NCBI GenBank assembly: GCA_027448785.1
Contig: DAIDMW010000003.1
Coordinates: forward strand, 1 to 60,029
DNA: 60,029 nt
Reading direction: 5' to 3'
DNA from: Candidatus Colwellbacteria bacterium
Lineage (GTDB): Bacteria; Patescibacteriota; Minisyncoccia; UBA6257; Colwellbacteraceae
Under the pieces are notes generated by a model. That model ran no database searches, was not told where the DNA came from, and was given only the letters and a program-made list of their open reading frames with translations. Numbering within the stretch: position 1 is the first letter of the stretch; every line of letters begins with the position of its first letter. Below are positions 29,047 through 59,699 of the stretch, in pieces. The position numbers and the translations under genes were made by a program.

Positions 29047-29439
29047 CTAAGCTCCAGTAGTTAAGAATCCGCTAAGAATAGTCTTTAAGCCAGTCGATAG
29101 CAAGGCGATAACGACTGCGATAACGGCGTAAATCAGCTTGTTTTTGGCGCTTTCCGTCTTTTTCGGATCTCCGCCGGCCATCAGATAATCAAAGGCTGCC
29201 CACAGTATAAAAACGCCAACCAGCATCCAGAAAATGTAAAAGACCCAGTTCACGATCAACTGAAGCAGTCCAACGGCTTGGCCGACCGAGGTAATCGGGG
29301 CTGTTCCTTGCACCGAAGAACCGGGAGCGGGAACGGGCGTTATTGGTTGAGCTTGTTGAGCCATAGCAGAGCCCTGCCCCGCAAGAACCATGCCCAACAT
29401 AGCTCCGATCGACGCTAGCATTAATTTTGCTTTTTTCAT
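29047..29439 (-). CDS. Pilin-like protein (TrbC/VirB2-type)
   Basis: Signal peptide, YLMAGGDPKKTESAKNKLIYAVI two-helix motif. Confidence 0.8.
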   Translation of the reverse strand: MKKAKLMLASIGAMLGMVLAGQGSAMAQQAQPITPVPAPGSSVQGTAPITSVGQAVGLLQLIVNWVFYIFWMLVGVFILWAAFDYLMAGGDPKKTESAKNKLIYAVIAVVIALLSTGLKTILSGFLTTGA

Positions 29440-31371: not shown

Positions 31372-31917
31372 TCAAATAATTCGTCCCGAATAAATCTTCG
31401 CAGCCGCAATATTAACAGCTCCGGTGGTCGTTGAAGACGGAACGGACTGTAGGAAATTTTGAATTATATAAACTATACCCTGGCCGATGAGGATTATTAT
31501 CGTCCCGATCACCGCGTATAAAAGCGCTTGTTTGGCTTTTTCTATATTTTTAGGATTACCTCCGGCAGTCAAAAACATGAACGCGGCCCAGATTACAACC
31601 AGCGCTATAAGCGGAGGCGCAACGTCAACCGTCAAAAAGTTGATCACCGCCTTCAACAAATCCATCGCGTTACTTGGCAGATTCTTTCCCCCGAGGGACG
31701 GAGGGTTTATCTTGATCGTGCCGCCGCTGCCTGGAGAAACCTGAGAGCCGGACGCCCCTCCGCCTGGGGATGTTTGAGAATTAGAAGCCCCTCCTCCAAT
31801 ACTGTTACCCGGACCAGTTTGACTAGCTAATGCTCGCCCGCTTATTGCAATTACGATAAAAGGAACAACAAGACCTAATATAAGCAAAGCCTTTCTTCTT
31901 TTTAAAAAAAGTTTCAT
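31372..31917 (-). CDS. Pilin-like protein with a Gly/Ser repeat linker
   Basis: FLTAGGNPKNIEKAKQALLYAVIG motif. Confidence 0.8.
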   Translation of the reverse strand: MKLFLKRRKALLILGLVVPFIVIAISGRALASQTGPGNSIGGGASNSQTSPGGGASGSQVSPGSGGTIKINPPSLGGKNLPSNAMDLLKAVINFLTVDVAPPLIALVVIWAAFMFLTAGGNPKNIEKAKQALLYAVIGTIIILIGQGIVYIIQNFLQSVPSSTTTGAVNIAAAKIYSGRII

Positions 31918-39849: not shown

Positions 39850-39850
39850 G

Positions 39851-39930
39851 AAAGCGCAAAGCGAAAAGCTAAAAGAGAAAAACAGCGACTAGGTAAGCAC
39901 AAAGATAAAAGCGCAAAGTTCAAAATAAAA
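39851..39930. repeat. Heptamer repeat, family A, left arms only
   Basis: CTAGGAAAGCGCAAAGCGAAAAGCTAAAAG... Confidence 0.75.
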
Positions 39931-40075
39931 TACGGGCTGGCCAGAACAATGGCCGGCCTTGATTTTATTTTTATCCGCGATACCTACCGCTCGTGCGGCA
40001 ACAGGAGATGAGAATATTTCGGGGCGGTTTTGCACTTTTCCAGTTTTCTCCTAATATATTGGAAGCCGGCTTCCC

Positions 40076-40148
40076 GCGCCCATAGCTCAGTGGTTAGAGC
40101 ATGCGACTTATAATCGCAGGGTCCTTGGTTCAAATCCAAGTGGGCGCA
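40076..40148 (+). tRNA. tRNA-Ile(UAU)
   Basis: TGCGA-CTTATAA-TCGCA anticodon arm, intact cloverleaf, A73. Confidence 0.9.
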
Positions 40149-40150
40149 CT

Positions 40151-40473
40151 AAAGAAACGCAAATCTTAAAGCGCAAAGCACAAAAGAACTACGTTATTGT
40201 TTTTCGCTTTTAGTTTTTCGCTTTGCGCTTCCTGGTCCCGTCCGTGTTTGTAATTTAGGATTTATAGTTTGTGATTTGTTTAGGGTTTAGTATTTAAGAT
40301 TTCGGATTTCCAATATCGGCTAGTCCCTAACCTCTATTCCCTAGTAAGTGTTTTTCGCTTTTAGTTTTTCGCTTTGCGCTTTAATCTTTGCGCTTTCACA
40401 TTTGTTTCGGATTTCGATATTAGGATTTGGAATTTCAGTTATTTTAAATTTTGCGCTTTAAGTTTTGCGCTTC
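40151..40473. repeat. Long composite heptamer repeat between tRNA-Ile and tRNA-Val
   Basis: Contains a 29-nt exact match (40400-40428) to 24768-24796. Confidence 0.85.
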
Positions 40474-40538
40474 ATGTCTCTCGTATTAAATTACGAGACC
40501 TGCTAGAATGATTGAAAGATTTCTGTCTCGCCCGGAGT

Positions 40539-40662: not shown

Positions 40663-41193
40663 ATGGCCAAACCGTATTCCGACAACATAATCTTCTTCGA
40701 TACCGAGTTTACCGACCTCGACCCGTATAAAGGCGAGTTGTTATCCGTCGGCATGATCAAGCCGTCGGGAGAGGAACTTTATCTAGAACTCGAACACCAG
40801 GGCGAGACGAGCGACTGGGTGAAGAAGATCGTCCTCCCTACTCTTACCGACAGGAAGGTTTCGCGAGAAGAGGCAAAAGAGAAAATCCGTGAGTTCATCG
40901 GCAATTCGATGCCCTACCTAGTTTCGTACGTTAATCAGTTCGATGCAATTTATTTTTATAAACTATTCGGAACCGAAAACCAGCCGGCCTATTACATCCC
41001 CATCGACTTTGCCTCTATCCTTTTCGGGCTCGGAATCGACCCCAAGGATTACGGAAATAGGTATTCGCGTCTCGTAAATATTCTCGATATCGACCTAACC
41101 AAGTTCCAAAAACATCACGCGCTAAATGACGCGCGTCTGTTGCGCGAGATGTACTTAAAGTTCTACGAGCGCATTAGCCAATTGGAGAGCTAG
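40663..41193 (+). CDS. DEDDh 3'-5' exonuclease/exoribonuclease
   Basis: FFDTEFT, SYVNQFD, HHALNDA. Confidence 0.88.
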   Translation: MAKPYSDNIIFFDTEFTDLDPYKGELLSVGMIKPSGEELYLELEHQGETSDWVKKIVLPTLTDRKVSREEAKEKIREFIGNSMPYLVSYVNQFDAIYFYKLFGTENQPAYYIPIDFASILFGLGIDPKDYGNRYSRLVNILDIDLTKFQKHHALNDARLLREMYLKFYERISQLES

Positions 41194-41218: not shown

Positions 41219-41440
41219 CCGGCTTTTAGATTAATCCGGCAATCGGCATTGCCGGAACCTTCCGGAAACGAATCCGGAAACGATAATCCGGCAAGCAAAA
41301 CTTAATGCCGGAATCCGGCAATAATCCGGAAACGGTAATCCGGAAATCTAATCCGGAAATGCGATTGCCGGATTGCCGCGGAAAACCGCATAAATACTAC
41401 TTCTGAAAATAATCCGGCAAAGGATTGTCGGATTACCGGA
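41219..41440. repeat. Irregular cluster of AATCCGG(A/C)A / ATTGCCGGA motifs
   Basis: 14 CCGG tetramers counted in about 220 bp. Confidence 0.85.
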
Positions 41441-41544
41441 TTTCCAAGCGTAAAACATTTTGATTAAAGTGTAAAACATTTATTTTACGGTGTTTTTGGA
41501 AAATATAGTGTTTTACTGACTTTTTCGTAATTTTGCTATTTTAT

Positions 41545-41752
41545 TGTTTCACGTGAAACATTTTTGTTAAAAAGGCCGGTTTTGGGGTAATTTGTTTCAC
41601 GTGAAACATTTTCACCTAAAACCAGGGTTTTTGTCGATTTTGTTTCACGTGAAACATTTTTTCTTAAAAGGCATATTTTAGAATAATTTGTTTCACGTGA
41701 AACATTTTTGTTAAAAAGGCCGGTTTTGGGGTAATTTGTTTCACGTGAAACA
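41545..41752. promoter_or_regulatory. parS array: 5 x TGTTTCACGTGAAACA at a 48-bp period
   Basis: Copies start at 41545, 41593, 41641, 41689 and 41737; exact match to the canonical bacterial parS consensus; about 15 kb from dnaA. Confidence 0.92.
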
Positions 41753-41824: not shown

Positions 41825-42247
41825 ATGACCGATCGTAAAATTTTAGGGATAGCTGGGGAAAAATTAGCTGCAGCTTATTTGAGGTTAAAAGGGTACAAAA
41901 TAATAACTAGGAATTTCCGCAAGCCCTGGGGAGAGATTGATCTTATCTCAACCTCACCAGATGGGATTTTGGTTTTTACCGAAATTAAGTCCGCACTTAT
42001 CGAGGAGTTGGACAAGGCTCCATCTCCAGCTGACCATATGAATTTTAAAAAGATCGGAAACTTGCGCCGATCAGCGGAGTTTTTTTCCAATAAGTTTCCC
42101 GAGTTAAGCGAGCGCGGCTGGAGAATTGATTTCATCTCTATCCGTATTCCGGAAAAATCGGTTCGGAGGGTGAGAATTTACCCATCTCTGCTATTGACAG
42201 AATTATTAAAATGTTGCGAAGTGGATCTTTGTGAGAATGCCGTTTAA
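41825..42247 (+). CDS. YraN/UPF0102 family endonuclease-like protein
   Basis: GIAGEKLAAAYL, NFRKPWGEIDLI, FTEIK. Confidence 0.88.
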   Translation: MTDRKILGIAGEKLAAAYLRLKGYKIITRNFRKPWGEIDLISTSPDGILVFTEIKSALIEELDKAPSPADHMNFKKIGNLRRSAEFFSNKFPELSERGWRIDFISIRIPEKSVRRVRIYPSLLLTELLKCCEVDLCENAV

Positions 42248-42639: not shown

Positions 42640-43411
42640 AGGAAAGAACGTAACTAAGCAGCGCTTCCTCGTACTCCAAGCCACCGCGCTTGACCGAAAG
42701 GTCATAACCAGCCAGCTTTTTTAGTTGGCTGGTTTCTTTAACGCCGAAGCTAAGCATATTGAAAACGTACGCCGAGTCGTCTCCTCTTTCGTCCAGGAGC
42801 CGCTCCAAAGCGATTATTTTTTTCTTCAAATCTCCTCCGTATTTTATGGCACTGACTAAGCTGTAAAAATCTCCGCCCACCGCTTCTTTCCGAACTGATC
42901 CCCCGAGCGCGATTCTTTCTATTTCAGTCGATAACCCCCAGAGATCCTCGCCCCAATTTTCTTTTAAATCGACGATCGCCTCGCGCGTTAAATTAACGTT
43001 CTGCCTGGCCGCCTCACTTTTTATGAATTCGTCCAACTGCTTATCCGTAAGCTCCTCGAAGGATTGGCTGAGCTTGGAATTTTTTAAAAGGAAGGCAAAT
43101 GGCGCTGGAGGCTTCGTCGCTTCGTTTAGAACCACCACCGCCTCCTCGTCGGCAACGATCTCGCCTTTTAAAAAATTTTTTACCAGTTTGTCGTCGGGAG
43201 AGGCGTAGGTGCCGCTCGCCACCGCCAGCTTTTTCGCCGCAAAGAGTGACTGGCTCCGGCAAAAATCCGAGAGCGCCGCCACAGCTCCGGGCGCAGTTAA
43301 ATCGAAAGATTCGCGGCCAAGTCCGCCGTTCTTCCTTTCGAACTCAGTTATTATCTCGCGCATCTTCTTTTGACGAAGGTAGGAGTTCGGGCCGTAAAGA
43401 AGAATAATCAT
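42629..43411 (-). CDS. holA: DNA polymerase III delta subunit (short)
   Basis: MIILLYGPNSY, EIERIAL; typical position next to rpsT. Confidence 0.75.
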   Translation of the reverse strand: MIILLYGPNSYLRQKKMREIITEFERKNGGLGRESFDLTAPGAVAALSDFCRSQSLFAAKKLAVASGTYASPDDKLVKNFLKGEIVADEEAVVVLNEATKPPAPFAFLLKNSKLSQSFEELTDKQLDEFIKSEAARQNVNLTREAIVDLKENWGEDLWGLSTEIERIALGGSVRKEAVGGDFYSLVSAIKYGGDLKKKIIALERLLDERGDDSAYVFNMLSFGVKETSQLKKLAGYDLSVKRGGLEYEEALLSYVLSSTY

Positions 43412-45018
43412 TATCTTCTTTTGCTAAGTGAAGCTTTAATAAACTCCAAAAAGAGCGGGTGCGGACGCATCGGATTAGAGGTAAATTCCGGGTGAAACTG
43501 CGTCCCCAGGAAGAAAGGATGAACCTTCTTCGAAAGCTCCATGATTTCCATCAGCCTACCGTCGGGCGAGGTTCCGGAAAAGACGACTCCGGCCTTCTGC
43601 AAATCCGCAATATATTCGGGATTAACTTCGTAGCGATGGCGGTGTCGTTCGCTAATCTCCTTTTTTCCGTAAGCCTTATAAGCGATCGTCCCCGGCTGCA
43701 GTTTGGCGGGATAGGCGCCGAGCCGCATGCTTCCGCCCATTTCTTTCGCGGCGATTTTTTGCTTCTGCTCCGGCATGACGTCAATGACGGGATACTTGGT
43801 TTTGGAATCCACCTCGACGGTATTAGCCGCCTTCCAGCCGAGCCGCGAACGGCTCAGCTCCACGACCGCCAACTGCATTCCGTAACACAAGCCGAAGAAA
43901 GGAATCTTCCTCTCGCGGCAGTACTTGATCGTCTTTATCTTACCCTCTACACCCCGGGCTCCGAAGCCGCCGGGGACGATTATTCCGTCAAAGCGATCAA
44001 GGTTTCCGGGGTTTTCTGCGTCCACCCACTCGATGAGCGGCTTAGCTTTCAAAGCGTAAGCTGCGTGTTTAACCGCCTCGATGACTGAGATGTAAGAGTC
44101 GGCCAGCACATAATCTCCGCTGCCGAAATATTTGCCGACGACGCCAATATGCACCGTCTTGGCGGCGGAATGGATTTCGCGGCTAAGCCTGCGGAACTCC
44201 TTTAAATCCTTTCGCCGCGGGCGAAGGTTTAGCTTCTTTAGAAGGCGACCGCTGATGTTATCGTTCTCGAAATTAATCGGGATGTCATAAATGCTCTCGG
44301 CGTCGGGAGCGGAGATGACGTCTTCCGTCTGGATGTTGCAGTTAAAAGAGATCTTCTCGCGGCGCTTCTGGTCGATCGGCACGCTCGCGCGGGCAATAAT
44401 AATGTCCGGCTGTAATCCTGCCGAATTTAGGGTGCGGACCGCATACTGCGTCGGCTTGGTTTTTAACTCACTGTCCTTGTTTAAGAATGGAAGGTAACTA
44501 ATTAAGGCCAGCACGACGCTCTTAGGATCCTTCAGTTTCAACATGCGGATTGCCTCCAAAAACAATATATTCTGGTACTCGCCAACCGTGCCTCCGATTT
44601 CCACGATGGCAATCTCGGCGTCGGCCAGTTTAGCGGCGCGATTAATGCGGTCGATGACCTCGAGGGGTATATGCGGCACCACTTCAACACACTTTCCGCC
44701 GTAATACAACTGCCTCTCTTTGTTAATAACCGACAGATAAACGCTGCCGGTGGTCATATAATTGGCGCTTGTTAGGTCGCGGCCCAGGAAACGCTCATAG
44801 TTTCCTAAGTCTTGGTCGCACTCCGTTCCATCGTTTAAAACAAAGACTTCGCCGTGCTCCACGGGATTCATCGTGCCCGCATCGACGTTGACATAAGGGT
44901 CGATCTTAATAGCCGTCACCTTGAATCCTCGTGACTGCAAAATGGCCCCAATCGAGGCTGAGGCCACTCCTTTTCCGACTCCGGACATCACTCCGCCAAC
45001 CACAAAAATATACTTCAT
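43411..45018 (-). CDS. pyrG: CTP synthase
   Basis: GGVMSGVGKG, KTKPTQ, GLCYGMQ, ERHRHRYE, QFHPEF. Confidence 0.98.
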   Translation of the reverse strand: MKYIFVVGGVMSGVGKGVASASIGAILQSRGFKVTAIKIDPYVNVDAGTMNPVEHGEVFVLNDGTECDQDLGNYERFLGRDLTSANYMTTGSVYLSVINKERQLYYGGKCVEVVPHIPLEVIDRINRAAKLADAEIAIVEIGGTVGEYQNILFLEAIRMLKLKDPKSVVLALISYLPFLNKDSELKTKPTQYAVRTLNSAGLQPDIIIARASVPIDQKRREKISFNCNIQTEDVISAPDAESIYDIPINFENDNISGRLLKKLNLRPRRKDLKEFRRLSREIHSAAKTVHIGVVGKYFGSGDYVLADSYISVIEAVKHAAYALKAKPLIEWVDAENPGNLDRFDGIIVPGGFGARGVEGKIKTIKYCRERKIPFFGLCYGMQLAVVELSRSRLGWKAANTVEVDSKTKYPVIDVMPEQKQKIAAKEMGGSMRLGAYPAKLQPGTIAYKAYGKKEISERHRHRYEVNPEYIADLQKAGVVFSGTSPDGRLMEIMELSKKVHPFFLGTQFHPEFTSNPMRPHPLFLEFIKASLSKRR

Positions 45019-55263: not shown

Positions 55264-56373
55264 TTATTCTCCTCCTTTGAGCGGGGCGAGAATGTACGAA
55301 TATTGTTTATCTTCGGGAGAAGAGATTAACGCTGGCCTGTTCAATCCACTTAATTTGATGACTATTTTGGTTCCATCACAGGCTTTTACTCCGTCTAGTA
55401 AAAATCGCCAATTAAATCCTATTTTAAACTCTCCAGCAACTTCTGCGGGTATTAAATAATTATTTTCTCCTAAATTACTACTTGCGGAATAAATTTCAAG
55501 ATGTTTGTCATCTTTATCCCTAATTCGTATATCATTGGTTTTAGCGGTAAAAACACTAGCTAATTTCAGGGCATTTATTAATTCATTCTTCTCCACCACC
55601 GCCTGGGATTCAATATTTTTCGGAATAATAGCCTCATAATCAGGATAAGTTCCCTCTATTAGGCGGGAAATTATTTCCACTTCTCCGGTTTTTACTAAAA
55701 CCTGATTATTTTCGATGTAAATCTTAGCTGTTTGGTCATCTTTGATGATTCTAATAATTTCATCGGCGGTTTTCAGGGGAATAATAATTCTAAACCCCTG
55801 ATTAAAAGCATTCTTAAACTGATTTTTTCCTATTATCGCTTCCGCCAAGCGAAAACTGTTGGTAGCCACCAGTTTCATTTGGTCAATCTCGGCGATGAGT
55901 AAAACCCCGCTGATTTCAGGCCTGATCTCTGAAATTTCGGCGGCTATAACCACCTTGCTTAGATTTTCTTTTAGGATACTGGAGTTTATCTCTAAATAAT
56001 TATCTTCTTCTTTTATTTTCGGAAAGATAGGAAACTCCTCCTCGCCCATACCTTGAATATTTGCTTCATAATTATCGGTTTTAATTTCGAGGTTGTTACC
56101 GGTTGATTCTAAACTTACCCTTTCGGTGGCTAAATTATTGACCAATCCGGAAAAGATAGAGTAGGGGACCGCTATTCCACCGACCTCGGTAACTTTGCCG
56201 GGGACAGCCGCGGTAATAGCTAACTCCAGATTAGTAGCCATCATTCTGATCTCCCCGTCGCTAGCCTTTAAAAGGACATTATTCAACGCTGGAAGGTTTG
56301 AGTTAGCCGTGATGGCCCGGCTTAAATAATCGAGACCTATTTTTAAATTGTTTTTTAAAGCTATTAATTTCAT
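55264..56373 (-). CDS. dnaN: DNA polymerase III beta clamp
   Basis: ATNLE, ATNSFRLAE, SRLIEGTYPDY; next to dnaA. Confidence 0.97.
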   Translation of the reverse strand: MKLIALKNNLKIGLDYLSRAITANSNLPALNNVLLKASDGEIRMMATNLELAITAAVPGKVTEVGGIAVPYSIFSGLVNNLATERVSLESTGNNLEIKTDNYEANIQGMGEEEFPIFPKIKEEDNYLEINSSILKENLSKVVIAAEISEIRPEISGVLLIAEIDQMKLVATNSFRLAEAIIGKNQFKNAFNQGFRIIIPLKTADEIIRIIKDDQTAKIYIENNQVLVKTGEVEIISRLIEGTYPDYEAIIPKNIESQAVVEKNELINALKLASVFTAKTNDIRIRDKDDKHLEIYSASSNLGENNYLIPAEVAGEFKIGFNWRFLLDGVKACDGTKIVIKLSGLNRPALISSPEDKQYSYILAPLKGGE

Positions 56374-56581: not shown

Positions 56582-57940
56582 TTATTCCGCTTTATTAACC
56601 AGCTCTTTTATCATCATTATTTTTTGGTGAAGGTTAGGATTTTTTGTAAGGTCATTATCTATTTTTTTATAAGCGTAAATAGCCGTGCTATGGTCTCTTT
56701 TTCCGACTTTGCTGGCAATGTAGGGAAAAGACATATCGAGCATGTCTCTTAATAGGTAAATAGCGATCTGACGCGGTTCGACCAGCTCTTTGCTGCGCGA
56801 CCGGCCGGTCAGGTCGTTCGGCATTATTTCGAAGAAATCGGAAACGGATTTTATAATTTGGTTTGGAGAAATATTACTAACCCCTTTGTCAGTTAAATCG
56901 GCGATTATTTTTTCCAAATCATCCTGCCCCAATATTTTTCCTTTCGCAGATTGGTAAAAAACTATTTTATTTAGAATTCCCTCTATTTCTCTGACATTTC
57001 GCTGAGCTTTCTTAGCTATCAATTCCACTACTTTTTGTTCCAGTTCCAACTCTTTTTCCTGTAGTTTAGTCTTGATGATAGCCACCCGCGACTCATACTC
57101 GGGGTAGGTTATATCGGCGATCATTCCCCCTTCAAACCTGGAACGCAGCCTTTCTTCTAAGACGGGCAGGGCTTTGGGAGGGCGGTCGGAGGAGATAATT
57201 ATTTGTTTGTTATTCTCGTAGAGTGAGTTGAAAGTATAAAAAAATTCCTCTTCAGTCTTTTCTTTTCCGCCGATAAACTGAATGTCATCGATAATTAAGA
57301 CATCAACGCTGCGGTAAACTGATTTGATGTCGTCCACTCTTCGGTTGCGTATAGCCCAAATAACCTCGTTGGTGAATTTTTCGGAGGTGACGTACTTTAT
57401 TTTTACTTTATTCTTGTAAACGCTTTTTATCTCGTTGCCAATACCTTGGATGAGGTGGGTTTTCCCCAAACCGACGCCTCCGTAGATGAACAAGGGATTG
57501 TACTTAGTGCCGATGTTGTTAATTACCGCCTCGGCGGCCGAATAAGCTAGCTCATTAAAAGGCCCGACGATAAACGAGTTAAAACTGTATTTAGGATTAA
57601 GGTTGGTCTCCGGATCGATTTTTGTTTCTTGGAGAAGGAGCTGTTTTTCCGAGACTTTTTGTTCCGCCTCTTTCGACAAGACCGACGGTTTAGGAGAGGA
57701 TTCGACGATATATTCCACCCGCTTTATGGAATAATCTATGTTTTTTAAAGAGGAGATTATTAATTTATTGTATTTGTTCTCCACCCATTCCTTTGTGAAA
57801 TAATTGGGAAGGGAAACTATAACCCCGTCCTCTTTTATTTCCACCAAGCGGCTGCTCTTCAGCCAAGTAAGAAAATTAGGACGGGAAATTTGTATTTCTA
57901 ACTCGGATAAAACAGATTTCCACAGCTCCTCCTTTTCCAT
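56582..57940 (-). CDS. dnaA: Chromosomal replication initiator
   Basis: NPLFIYGGVGLGKTHL, IDDIQF, RLRSRFEGG, RDHSTAIYA. Confidence 0.99.
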   Translation of the reverse strand: MEKEELWKSVLSELEIQISRPNFLTWLKSSRLVEIKEDGVIVSLPNYFTKEWVENKYNKLIISSLKNIDYSIKRVEYIVESSPKPSVLSKEAEQKVSEKQLLLQETKIDPETNLNPKYSFNSFIVGPFNELAYSAAEAVINNIGTKYNPLFIYGGVGLGKTHLIQGIGNEIKSVYKNKVKIKYVTSEKFTNEVIWAIRNRRVDDIKSVYRSVDVLIIDDIQFIGGKEKTEEEFFYTFNSLYENNKQIIISSDRPPKALPVLEERLRSRFEGGMIADITYPEYESRVAIIKTKLQEKELELEQKVVELIAKKAQRNVREIEGILNKIVFYQSAKGKILGQDDLEKIIADLTDKGVSNISPNQIIKSVSDFFEIMPNDLTGRSRSKELVEPRQIAIYLLRDMLDMSFPYIASKVGKRDHSTAIYAYKKIDNDLTKNPNLHQKIMMIKELVNKAE

Positions 57941-58111: not shown

Positions 58112-58246
58112 ATGTCTAGGACTTATCAGCCGAAAAAGAAGAAGAGAGCCAGAACCCACGGCTTTTTGGCCAGAAAAAGCACTCCAGGCGGGCGCCGAGT
58201 ACTGCAGAGGCGGAGAACCGCCGGTCGGAAGAAGCTGGCGGTTTAA
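58112..58246 (+). CDS. rpmH: 50S ribosomal protein L34
   Basis: Not in ORF track. [44 protein letters not shown], stop overlaps the rnpA ATG. Confidence 0.97.
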
Positions 58247-58563
58247 TGATTCCTAAAAAACTCCGGTTAAACGTCGCCGAGTTTCCAAGAGAGGCTCCGG
58301 TAGCGGCCAACACGGAGTATTTTTTATTGAAAGTAAAAAATAACACTCTTGATAAGTTTCGGATCGGTGTGGTGGTGAGTTTAAAAGTTTCTAAATCCGC
58401 GGTCGAAAGAAACCGGCTGCGGCGCATGGCTTTCGACGGATTGTTTTCCGCCGCTTCACACTCTTCTAAACTAAAAAATGCCGATGTTCTTTTAATCTTC
58501 AAACCGGCGGCCGCCGGCTTGTCAAAAGAAAAGCTACAAACTATTCTCCATAGATATGTCTAA
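58246..58563 (+). CDS. rnpA: RNase P protein component
   Basis: VSKSAVERNRLRR (RNR motif); conserved synteny. Confidence 0.93.
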   Translation: MIPKKLRLNVAEFPREAPVAANTEYFLLKVKNNTLDKFRIGVVVSLKVSKSAVERNRLRRMAFDGLFSAASHSSKLKNADVLLIFKPAAAGLSKEKLQTILHRYV

Positions 58564-59290
58564 TTTATTTAACCAAATACTTTTTCTGCCGCTATTTAAT
58601 TTTCTGATAATTCTTTACAACTCGGTCGCCTTCCATGACCTGGGCTTGGCGGTGGTAATACTGACGGTCATAATCCGGATTATCATCTTTCCCGTTTTCC
58701 ATCGTTCGCTTAAGCACCAGCGCAAGCTGCAGAAGCTTGGCCCACATATTAAGCGCATCCAGGAGGAGCATAAAAATGACAAAGAAAAGCAGGCACAGGC
58801 GATCATGGAACTGTATAAAGAGCACGGCGTAAATCCGTTTTCGCAGTTCTATCTACTCCTAATTCAGTTTCCAATCCTTTATGCCCTCTATCGCGTCGTT
58901 CTGGCCGGAATAAACTCGTCCAACCTAAAGAGCTTTCTTTATCCTTCGGTTGTCGCTCCGGCGGCTTTCTCTCCTTATTTTCTGGGAATTGTCGATTTAA
59001 ACAGCCGCAGCCTGCTTATCGCGGTCGTTGCCGGCGTCGTCCAATATCTACAAGCCACAACCTCCATTCCTAAGCCTCCTCCGGGCACGAAGCTAAGCCC
59101 GGCTGAGGAGGCGGGGCGTAAAGCGCTGCTTTTTATGGTCGGATTTATGTTTATTTTTGCCTACACTCTGCCGGCCGCAATCGGGCTTTATTTGATCACA
59201 ACCACCTTGTTTACTTTGGTGCAGCAGGTTATAGTAAACAGACAAACCGAGGAAGATCTGGAAAGAGAACAAGATGGAAGAGGACATTAA
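58556..59290 (+). CDS. yidC: Membrane protein insertase YidC/Oxa1 (short)
   Basis: LTVIIRII, QAIMELYKEHGVNP, LPAAIGLY. Confidence 0.94.
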   Translation: MSNLFNQILFLPLFNFLIILYNSVAFHDLGLAVVILTVIIRIIIFPVFHRSLKHQRKLQKLGPHIKRIQEEHKNDKEKQAQAIMELYKEHGVNPFSQFYLLLIQFPILYALYRVVLAGINSSNLKSFLYPSVVAPAAFSPYFLGIVDLNSRSLLIAVVAGVVQYLQATTSIPKPPPGTKLSPAEEAGRKALLFMVGFMFIFAYTLPAAIGLYLITTTLFTLVQQVIVNRQTEEDLEREQDGRGH

Positions 59291-59699
59291 AAAGATAGTA
59301 GAGCTCTTGGGATTTAAGAATTTTAGCGTGGAGCCCGGAGACGAACAGAGGTTTTTTTCCATTCATATTAACGACGAATCTGTTTCCAAAGAAAAACTTC
59401 CGGGATTCATTGCCGACCTTAATAAGGTGGTGCGGCTGTTTGCTAAGAAGAAGGGGTATTCTCCGGTTGTGGTTGACGTCAATAACTACAGGCGGGAAAG
59501 GGAAAGATTAATCGTGGAGCTGGCTAGGGCGGCGGCAAGGCAGGCCGCTGCCACCAAGTCCGCGGTCCAGCTGCCGGCGATGAACGCCTACGAGAGGAGA
59601 TTAATCCACTCGGAGCTGAGTATTCGGCCGGATGTGCGGACCGAAAGCGTCGGCGAAGGCAAGGAGCGCCGCGTAGTAATAACCTTCATCGAGGAGTAG
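59274..59699 (+). CDS. Jag/KhpB-like KH-R3H protein (short)
   Basis: VDVNNYR, MNAYERRLIH, SVGEGKERRV. Confidence 0.88.
   Translation: MEEDIKKIVELLGFKNFSVEPGDEQRFFSIHINDESVSKEKLPGFIADLNKVVRLFAKKKGYSPVVVDVNNYRRERERLIVELARAAARQAAATKSAVQLPAMNAYERRLIHSELSIRPDVRTESVGEGKERRVVITFIEE

Follow-up and report, generated by a model that had tools for sequence, protein, structure and literature searches.

In the window, by which we mean the whole analysed stretch of 60,029 bp, a 630-bp intergenic region hosts a tandem array of five copies of the palindrome TGTTTCACGTGAAACA. Upstream it is flanked by the gene of an RNase T-like 3'-5' exonuclease, and downstream by yraN, after which rpsT, a 260-aa gene without Pfam match, pyrG and fpg follow in this order. 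The features discussed below are as follows (those marked unstranded have no strand assigned):

40663-41193, + strand: RNase T-like 3'-5' exonuclease gene, upstream flank, homologues with Patescibacteria names (Paceibacterota, Magasanikbacteria, Yanofskybacteria)
41233-41442, unstranded: AATCCGG[C/A]AA boxes, core CGG[CA]AA / TT[GT]CCG, in both orientations, same intergenic region as the array
41450-41516, unstranded: three isolated parS half-sites, GTAAAACA at 41450 and 41471 (21 bp apart) and inverted TGTTTTAC at 41509
41545-41752, unstranded: whole array, five perfect 16-bp parS palindromes and four spacers of 32 nt, unit order A, B, C, A, terminal parS
41545-41560, unstranded: parS 1, 0 mismatches to TGTTTCACGTGAAACA
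41569-41583, unstranded: mid-spacer element of unit A (A-tract, GC-rich core, T-tract), AAAAAGGCCGGTTTT, identical copy at 41713-41727
41593-41608, unstranded: parS 2, exact TGTTTCACGTGAAACA
41618-41632, unstranded: mid-spacer element of unit B, AAAACCAGGGTTTTT
41641-41656, unstranded: parS 3, exact TGTTTCACGTGAAACA, counterpart degenerate (GAAAGG) in the same-species contigs L125 and L123
41666-41679, unstranded: mid-spacer element of unit C, AAAAGGCATATTTT, core degenerate
41689-41704, unstranded: parS 4, exact TGTTTCACGTGAAACA
41713-41727, unstranded: mid-spacer element of the second A unit, AAAAAGGCCGGTTTT
41737-41752, unstranded: parS 5, exact TGTTTCACGTGAAACA
41825-42247, + strand: yraN (UPF0102), downstream flank
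55264-56373, - strand: dnaN
56582-57940, - strand: dnaA, origin marker
58113-59699: rpmH, rnpA, yidC, jag

Pfam scans of the window and precomputed domains of related contigs revealed housekeeping genes and T4SS-like pilin genes. As the flanking housekeeping genes stand in conserved order, we regard this DNA as chromosomal and not as a mobile element. The leftward extension adds an aminotransferase gene, htrA, clpB, an RNase Y gene and an HU gene, and the rightward one, beyond jag, a T4SS-like cluster and ksgA. The pilin genes are situated at 29047-29439 and 31372-31917, and a TraC/VirB4-PrgI-TrbL cluster (L133, 10448-18010) is found immediately past jag, adjoining the presumed origin. To the left of the exonuclease gene, AAAGCGCAAAG / CTTTGCGCTTT motifs and short tandem repeats occupy 39850-40480, around and between tRNA-Ile and tRNA-Val genes (TRF rows 40254-40472). 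The tRNA-Ile, detected by ARAGORN at 40076-40149, has the anticodon TAT (UAU); a tRNA-Ile of this kind is an uncommon bacterial means of reading AUA.

The five copies of TGTTTCACGTGAAACA, a number taken from a single assembly, start at 41545, 41593, 41641, 41689 and 41737, the start-to-start distance being always 48 bp and the spacers 32 nt, and all of them are exact matches to the parS consensus tGTTtCACGTGAAACa. Beyond these five sites the window contains zero matches to TGTTTCACGTGAAACA even with up to 3 mismatches, and no parS-like site was present in the 10-kb extensions on both sides, which leaves the array sites alone in about 80 kb. In 100 dinucleotide-preserving shuffles the mean number of TGTTTCACGTGAAACA matches was 0.21, and none of the 100 reached five. 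Tandem Repeats Finder reported a period of 48 bp with 4.6 copies, and no exact repeat inside the array exceeds about 70 bp. Spacers 1 and 4 have the same sequence (TTTTTGTTAAAAAGGCCGGTTTTGGGGTAATT), which reflects recent duplication or recombination; spacers 2 and 3 diverge in sequence and retain the T runs of the unit at positions 17-20 and about 36-39 and its A run at about 26-29. The array is a real, statistically unambiguous feature. The first-pass annotation, made from the sequence of the window, had described five perfect sites at an exact 48-bp period, with identical outer spacers and with inner ones that had diverged under the same length and T-tract/A-tract layout, and our exact and mismatch-tolerant searches, together with Tandem Repeats Finder, reproduce this description. 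It had also named the 16-mer a canonical parS; the same sequence serves as the chromosomal parS probe in PMC3597684, in agreement with that identification.

The end of the array lies 14.8 kb from dnaA, with dnaN and the rpmH-rnpA-yidC-jag genes nearby, an origin-type cluster that upholds the earlier placement of these sites near oriC, about 15 kb from dnaA; oriC itself is placed here from gene order only. GC skew was uninformative and located no origin within the window, and only three DnaA boxes, each with one mismatch, flank dnaA. Boxes of the CGG[CA]AA type reach 13 in 351 bp upstream of the array, i.e. 37/kb as compared to 2.8/kb in the window, and their enrichment upstream of the array locus is conserved in contigs L144, L270, L148 and L229. 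We considered them as DnaA boxes, yet they are unlike TTATCCACA and their motif is absent from the dnaA promoter, and for this reason the reading of this intergenic region as oriC was dropped. Between these boxes and the array are the three half-sites, of which the direct GTAAAACA pair is conserved in both sister species and also in L148 and L229; altogether 13 of the 14 GTRAAACA half-sites in the window fall inside 41450-41752. A promoter and terminator scan gave nothing above chance that would account for the array.

For the partition proteins, HMMs were built from 57 ParB and 65 ParA sequences adjoining parS pairs in other phyla. Searched in six frames, the 60-kb window, the 10-kb extensions on each side and the related and sister-species contigs contained no ParB, and the only ParA signal in the same search was the weak CbiA-like N-terminus of PyrG. 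Pfam and domain scans of the window and related contigs likewise detected no parA, parB, cas or Nop/tas genes, so that the earlier remark on the lack of parA and parB in the window was right. Among the matches listed, parB was present in the locus of 0 of 10 probable Patescibacteria arrays (L150, L187, L199, L201, L206, L209, L219, L229, L244 and L268) and of 54 of 110 others (Fisher p = 0.002), a comparison between loci that differ in length and whose taxonomy was assigned by blastp and gene order only. In model bacteria it is normal for parS to be far from parB. A literature search returned no paper joining parS, ParB and Patescibacteria, and nothing usable for CPR segregation, Saccharibacteria or Parcubacteria. 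The gene pyrG (43411-45018), 1.7 kb away from the array, encodes CTP synthase; ParB uses CTP, but the proximity is probably coincidental.

In other samples, contigs of this species show almost the same flanks around different arrays, and both sister species, in which the exonuclease is about 80% identical, carry arrays at the same locus:

L126 and L128: 2 parS sites, spacing 48 bp
window: 5 parS sites, units A, B, C, A
L125: 6 parS sites, spacing 48, 48, 52, 48, 48 bp, one site degenerate
L127: 7 parS sites, spacing 48, 48, 54, 48, 48, 48 bp
L131: at least 4 parS sites, spacing 48, 48, 52 bp
L144/L145, sister species: 6 parS sites, spacing 48, 151, 46, 76, 48 bp
L270, sister species: 6 parS sites, spacing 48, 48, 48, 87, 48 bp

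MAGs with this locus are GCA_027423965.1, GCA_027423985.1 and GCA_021841375.1 and, for the sister species, GCA_027423945.1 and GCA_023474185.1. The metagenomic contig L229, with a related yraN, has 6 parS sites, the final three at 48 and 48 bp. In L148 (exonuclease identity 66%) the gene order is kept and half-sites with one three-mismatch site are found, with no perfect parS, and parS is absent from the locus in relatives at 63-65% identity. In L125, L127, L131, L144, L270 and L229 the 16-mer remains perfect while the surrounding non-coding DNA changes, spacers dropping to 40-75% identity or to the random level. In the sister species contig L144 (11453-20435) yraN is followed by a dksA-like gene, comM, uvrD and ksgA instead of the genes from rpsT to dnaA, which points to a rearrangement whose breakpoint lies on the downstream side of yraN, close to the parS array.

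The array unit of 48 bp is roughly dyad-symmetric and consists of parS and a mid-spacer A4-(CCCGGG-like)-T4 element, whose centre is about 24 bp from each adjacent parS centre. In the window species, the two sister species and a more distant relative we collected 16 distinct 32-nt spacers; other lengths are represented by single spacers of 30, 36, 38, 60 and 71 nt and by a few long ones. Most of the 32-nt spacers align without gaps, with 14-25 identities over 32 positions versus 9.3 ± 2.6 in shuffles, and the conserved unit columns are T17-20, A26-29, the GC-rich core 30-35 and T36-39. In the sister species L144 and L270 the consensus of the mid-spacer element is the perfect palindrome AAAACCCGGGTTTT. 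Four spacers, X2, X3, Y1 and Y2, are without the element and have near-random similarity to the rest, and are still exactly 32 nt long. Within every species the two outermost spacers match or resemble one another (A...A, S1...S5, X1...X1'), which fits unequal recombination and explains the two-site alleles.

Taking the clade as a whole, 48 bp is by far the modal interval (exact in 16 of 19 short intervals), and intervals of 46, 52, 54, 76, 87 and 151 bp occur at the same locus. The earlier proposal that spacing is under selection, for which a table of distances in relatives had been suggested, is therefore borne out in part: the modal interval, kept in 16 distinct 32-nt spacers of which some are similar at the random level only, speaks for it, and the other intervals together with the variation from 2 to 7 units speak against it. 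As these deviating intervals exist, selection on the 48-bp spacing within the clade is, judging from sequence comparison, plausible and not more. The exact period in the window is mainly due to unit duplication, and the two-site alleles in L126 and L128 mean that five phased sites are not required. The array had also been called phased, a term that should be abandoned in the helical sense, since 48 bp corresponds to 4.57 turns at 10.5 bp/turn and neighbouring sites, about 206 degrees apart, are not on the same helix face. In a wedge model with Bolshoy-Trifonov parameters, predicted curvature over 208 bp is highest for the array plus about 60 bp upstream (top 0.17% of the window), and its peaks, at about 15 degrees per turn, fall in the spacers; these values are indicative only. 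AT-rich intergenic DNA often scores as curved. The modelled end-to-end distance and shape of the array were the same as in spacer-shuffled controls, which fits alternating bends.

Close and tandem perfect parS sites are widespread, and no universal preference for 48 bp is seen among them. Two perfect sites 33-63 bp apart occur in at least 120 loci (one genome per species), and three perfect sites with 40-60 bp periods in at least 120 metagenome loci, some contigs having up to 17 perfect sites. Regular arrays among the matches listed include Collinsella with 3 sites at 39 bp, Lachnospiraceae with 7 sites at 46-47 bp and further genome arrays at 34-37, 44 and 48/47 bp; in metagenomes, regular periods of 39-40, 44, 54, 58-59 and 66 bp were noticed among the matches listed. 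Once duplicates are removed, the matches listed show no preference for 48 bp, which accounts for 1 of 111 intervals in one data set and 8 of 189 in the other. We also looked for helical periodicity of parS-parS distances; the Rayleigh statistic hardly changed from one trial period to the next and the two data sets differed in phase, giving no evidence of phasing across bacteria. Only 3 triple-parS arrays were present in 2.9 million viral contigs, hence such arrays are not a phage feature. The first-pass contrast with the scattered parS sites of model bacteria is not supported by these counts, at least 120 loci per scan, nor by the M. xanthus cluster (PMC3899335). The 10 probable Patescibacteria contigs have other unit lengths, with arrays beside nusA, clpP or dnaA. 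A 58-59-bp tandem parS array of at least 11 units with well conserved spacers (L268, 1461-2271, and L189, 1-438), beside clpP/nusA homologues, is a separate lineage-specific array type. In three of the probable Patescibacteria contigs (L199, L244 and L201) the spacers hold a permuted palindrome with reversed half-sites (GTGAAACATGTTACAC, GTGAAACTGTTTCAC), which suggests additional half-site arrangements around CPR centromeres.

Taken together, the array is best explained, with a probability of roughly 0.75, as the chromosomal centromere on which ParB loads in a Patescibacteria (Paceibacteria-like) genome, a tandem parS cluster changing by unequal recombination in which the 48-bp distance is preferentially kept. 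A functional chromosomal centromere is the most likely role because of the exact consensus, the lack of other sites in about 80 kb, the origin-proximal position and the conservation of the 16-mer while spacers diverge. Anatomy, locus, polymorphism and cross-species conservation are direct observations; we infer, by analogy, that ParB binds and loads in a CTP-dependent manner, and any advantage from the spacing is putative. ParB dimers would bind the origin-near cluster of consensus parS and, as characterised ParB proteins do, would bind CTP, close to clamps and slide off, which would free the site for reloading. With several sites side by side, ParB would load faster locally, and the partition complex that ParA and/or SMC use would be nucleated there. 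Unequal recombination between the similar first and last units would expand and contract the array to 2 to 7 sites. Within the genus-level clade the 48-bp centre-to-centre distance would also be preferentially kept, with neighbouring sites probably placed on roughly opposite helix faces and separated by a spacer predicted to be intrinsically curved.

The main challenge concerns the spacing. With a likelihood that we put somewhat below even, the sites are functional parS and the period has no function of its own, being simply the length of a tandem-duplicated, VNTR-like unit. Identical units 1 and 4, copy numbers of 2-7 among strains, tolerance of other intervals at the same locus, lineage-own unit lengths elsewhere (39, 44, 46, 58-59 and 66 bp) and, among the matches listed, the lack of a global 48-bp peak and of helical periodicity all agree with it. 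With the indel-to-substitution ratio set to 0.05, a length of 32 nt would persist in about 40-60% of moderately diverged spacers; unless indels are frequent, such a simple neutral estimate covers most of the observed constancy in length. The near-random X2, X3, Y1 and Y2 are nevertheless exactly 32 nt long, with a chance of no indel at their level of divergence of 0.01-0.09 each, and the 48-bp interval prevails despite slippage-prone A/T runs in the spacers. A different cause of the period would be a composite centromere, where the mid-spacer palindrome AAAACCCGGGTTTT, by binding a second protein as a dimer or by acting as an intrinsic bend or hinge, fixes the distance. Three species share the A4 / GC-rich 6 / T4 block at mid-spacer, as a perfect palindrome in L144 and L270; its central place is kept even in the 46-bp unit, and predicted curvature peaks in the spacers. 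Against this, several units have a degenerate core (GGCATA, CCCCTG, GCTCAT), four 32-nt spacers have no such element, the motif is absent from the window outside the array, no candidate binding protein was identified and the conservation may only mean common descent of the units. We consider this explanation unlikely. Slightly better odds, although still low ones, go to a bolder model, of a clade with a fixed-geometry, sopC-like chromosomal centromere, in which parS would alternate with a second palindrome at a 24-bp offset on curved spacers, 48 bp (about 4.5 turns, alternating faces) would be selected for a defined complex of ParB or of ParB with a partner, and the array would be far from parB or served by an unusual partition apparatus.

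Other alternatives question the array itself. It seems improbable to us that a hard-to-assemble repeat gave the window a false count or arrangement of units: several independent short-read contigs (L121-L124, L129-L131) terminate at or within the array, the exact order A, B, C, A is in no other contig and two-site versions could be collapsed assemblies, but independent assemblies of different samples contain the unique spacers D, E, F, G and H, which collapse or expansion cannot produce and which make the multi-unit structure real. Besides, L123 and L131 independently match the two ends of L125, sister species have arrays too, and exact internal repeats reach only the mentioned 70 bp or so. 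Much less credible still is the idea that the genome is without ParB and that the palindromes are operators of some other CACGTG-binding regulator of yraN and rpsT. The lack of ParB and ParA in about 80 kb and the absence of parB from the probable Patescibacteria loci (0 of 10, against 54 of 110 others among the matches listed) would suit it; every copy in several species, however, is the exact 16-bp ParB consensus, the position is origin-proximal, arrays of the same 16-mer adjoin parB in many other phyla, and parS remote from parB is, as stated above, usual in model bacteria. We give practically no weight to an RNA-guide array, CRISPR or TIGR, which the regular alternation of repeats and 32-nt spacers might bring to mind. 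TIGR arrays are common in CPR bacteria and have 36-nt units with dual repeats or stem-loops and box C/D motifs, beside a Nop-domain tas gene (PMC12045711). Here the unit is 48 bp, box C/D motifs are missing and no Nop-domain gene is in the neighbourhood, either in the window or in related loci. As to CRISPR, the repeat is only 16 bp, equal to parS (vs about 23 nt or more), spacers are mutually homologous with one of them duplicated, and no cas genes or domains were detected in the same loci. No Rfam family reached the gathering score, the only matches being sub-threshold hairpins of miRNA type caused by the inverted repeats, and the strong single-strand folding z-score of the array is a trivial consequence of repeated palindromes.

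If the array is read as a ParB-loading centromere, natural tandem arrays of perfect parS offer test material for the number and spacing of loading sites that ParB-CTP clamps need, their value coming from lineage-specific, internally constant spacing and from strain-level variation in copy number. They also break short-read assemblies close to the origin. Should the spacing be neutral, the array is simply an ordinary centromere cluster.

Compared with the chromosomal parS of B. subtilis Spo0J/parS type (consensus TGTTTCACGTGAAACA), the palindrome, origin-proximal position and multiple copies are the same, whereas here the sites are arranged head-to-tail at 48 bp in one intergenic region and not spread over the origin domain, no parAB is nearby and copy number varies between strains. 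Clusters in M. xanthus, Caulobacter, Corynebacterium and Pseudomonas resemble the array in having many origin-near parS acting as one centromere. M. xanthus has 22 parS in 3 kb (PMC3899335), roughly 140 bp on average, and the present array is tighter and regular; unlike in such dense clusters, all its sites are perfect consensus and its spacers are recognisable copies of one unit. P. aeruginosa ParB binds half-parS sites (PMC5961200, PMC10419367), and in the window isolated GTRAAACA half-sites also accompany the full ones, although only three candidates exist, directly beside the array and not genome-wide. F-plasmid sopC consists of 12 tandem 43-bp repeats, each with a SopB-bound 16-bp inverted repeat (PMC3597684); it and the present array are both tandem direct repeats with one 16-bp palindrome of the ParB family per unit and a variable number of units. 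A plasmid centromere of sopC type beside parA-parB (sopAB) was nevertheless rejected, given the chromosomal housekeeping neighbours and no parAB in about 80 kb. The array differs from sopC in its chromosomal location and chromosomal parS sequence, in the unit of 48 bp (about 4.6 turns) instead of 43 bp (about 4.1 turns), and in lying apart from its partition operon. We read it as a canonical parS centromere whose tandem form is uncommonly tidy, one case of a widespread, little-described arrangement.
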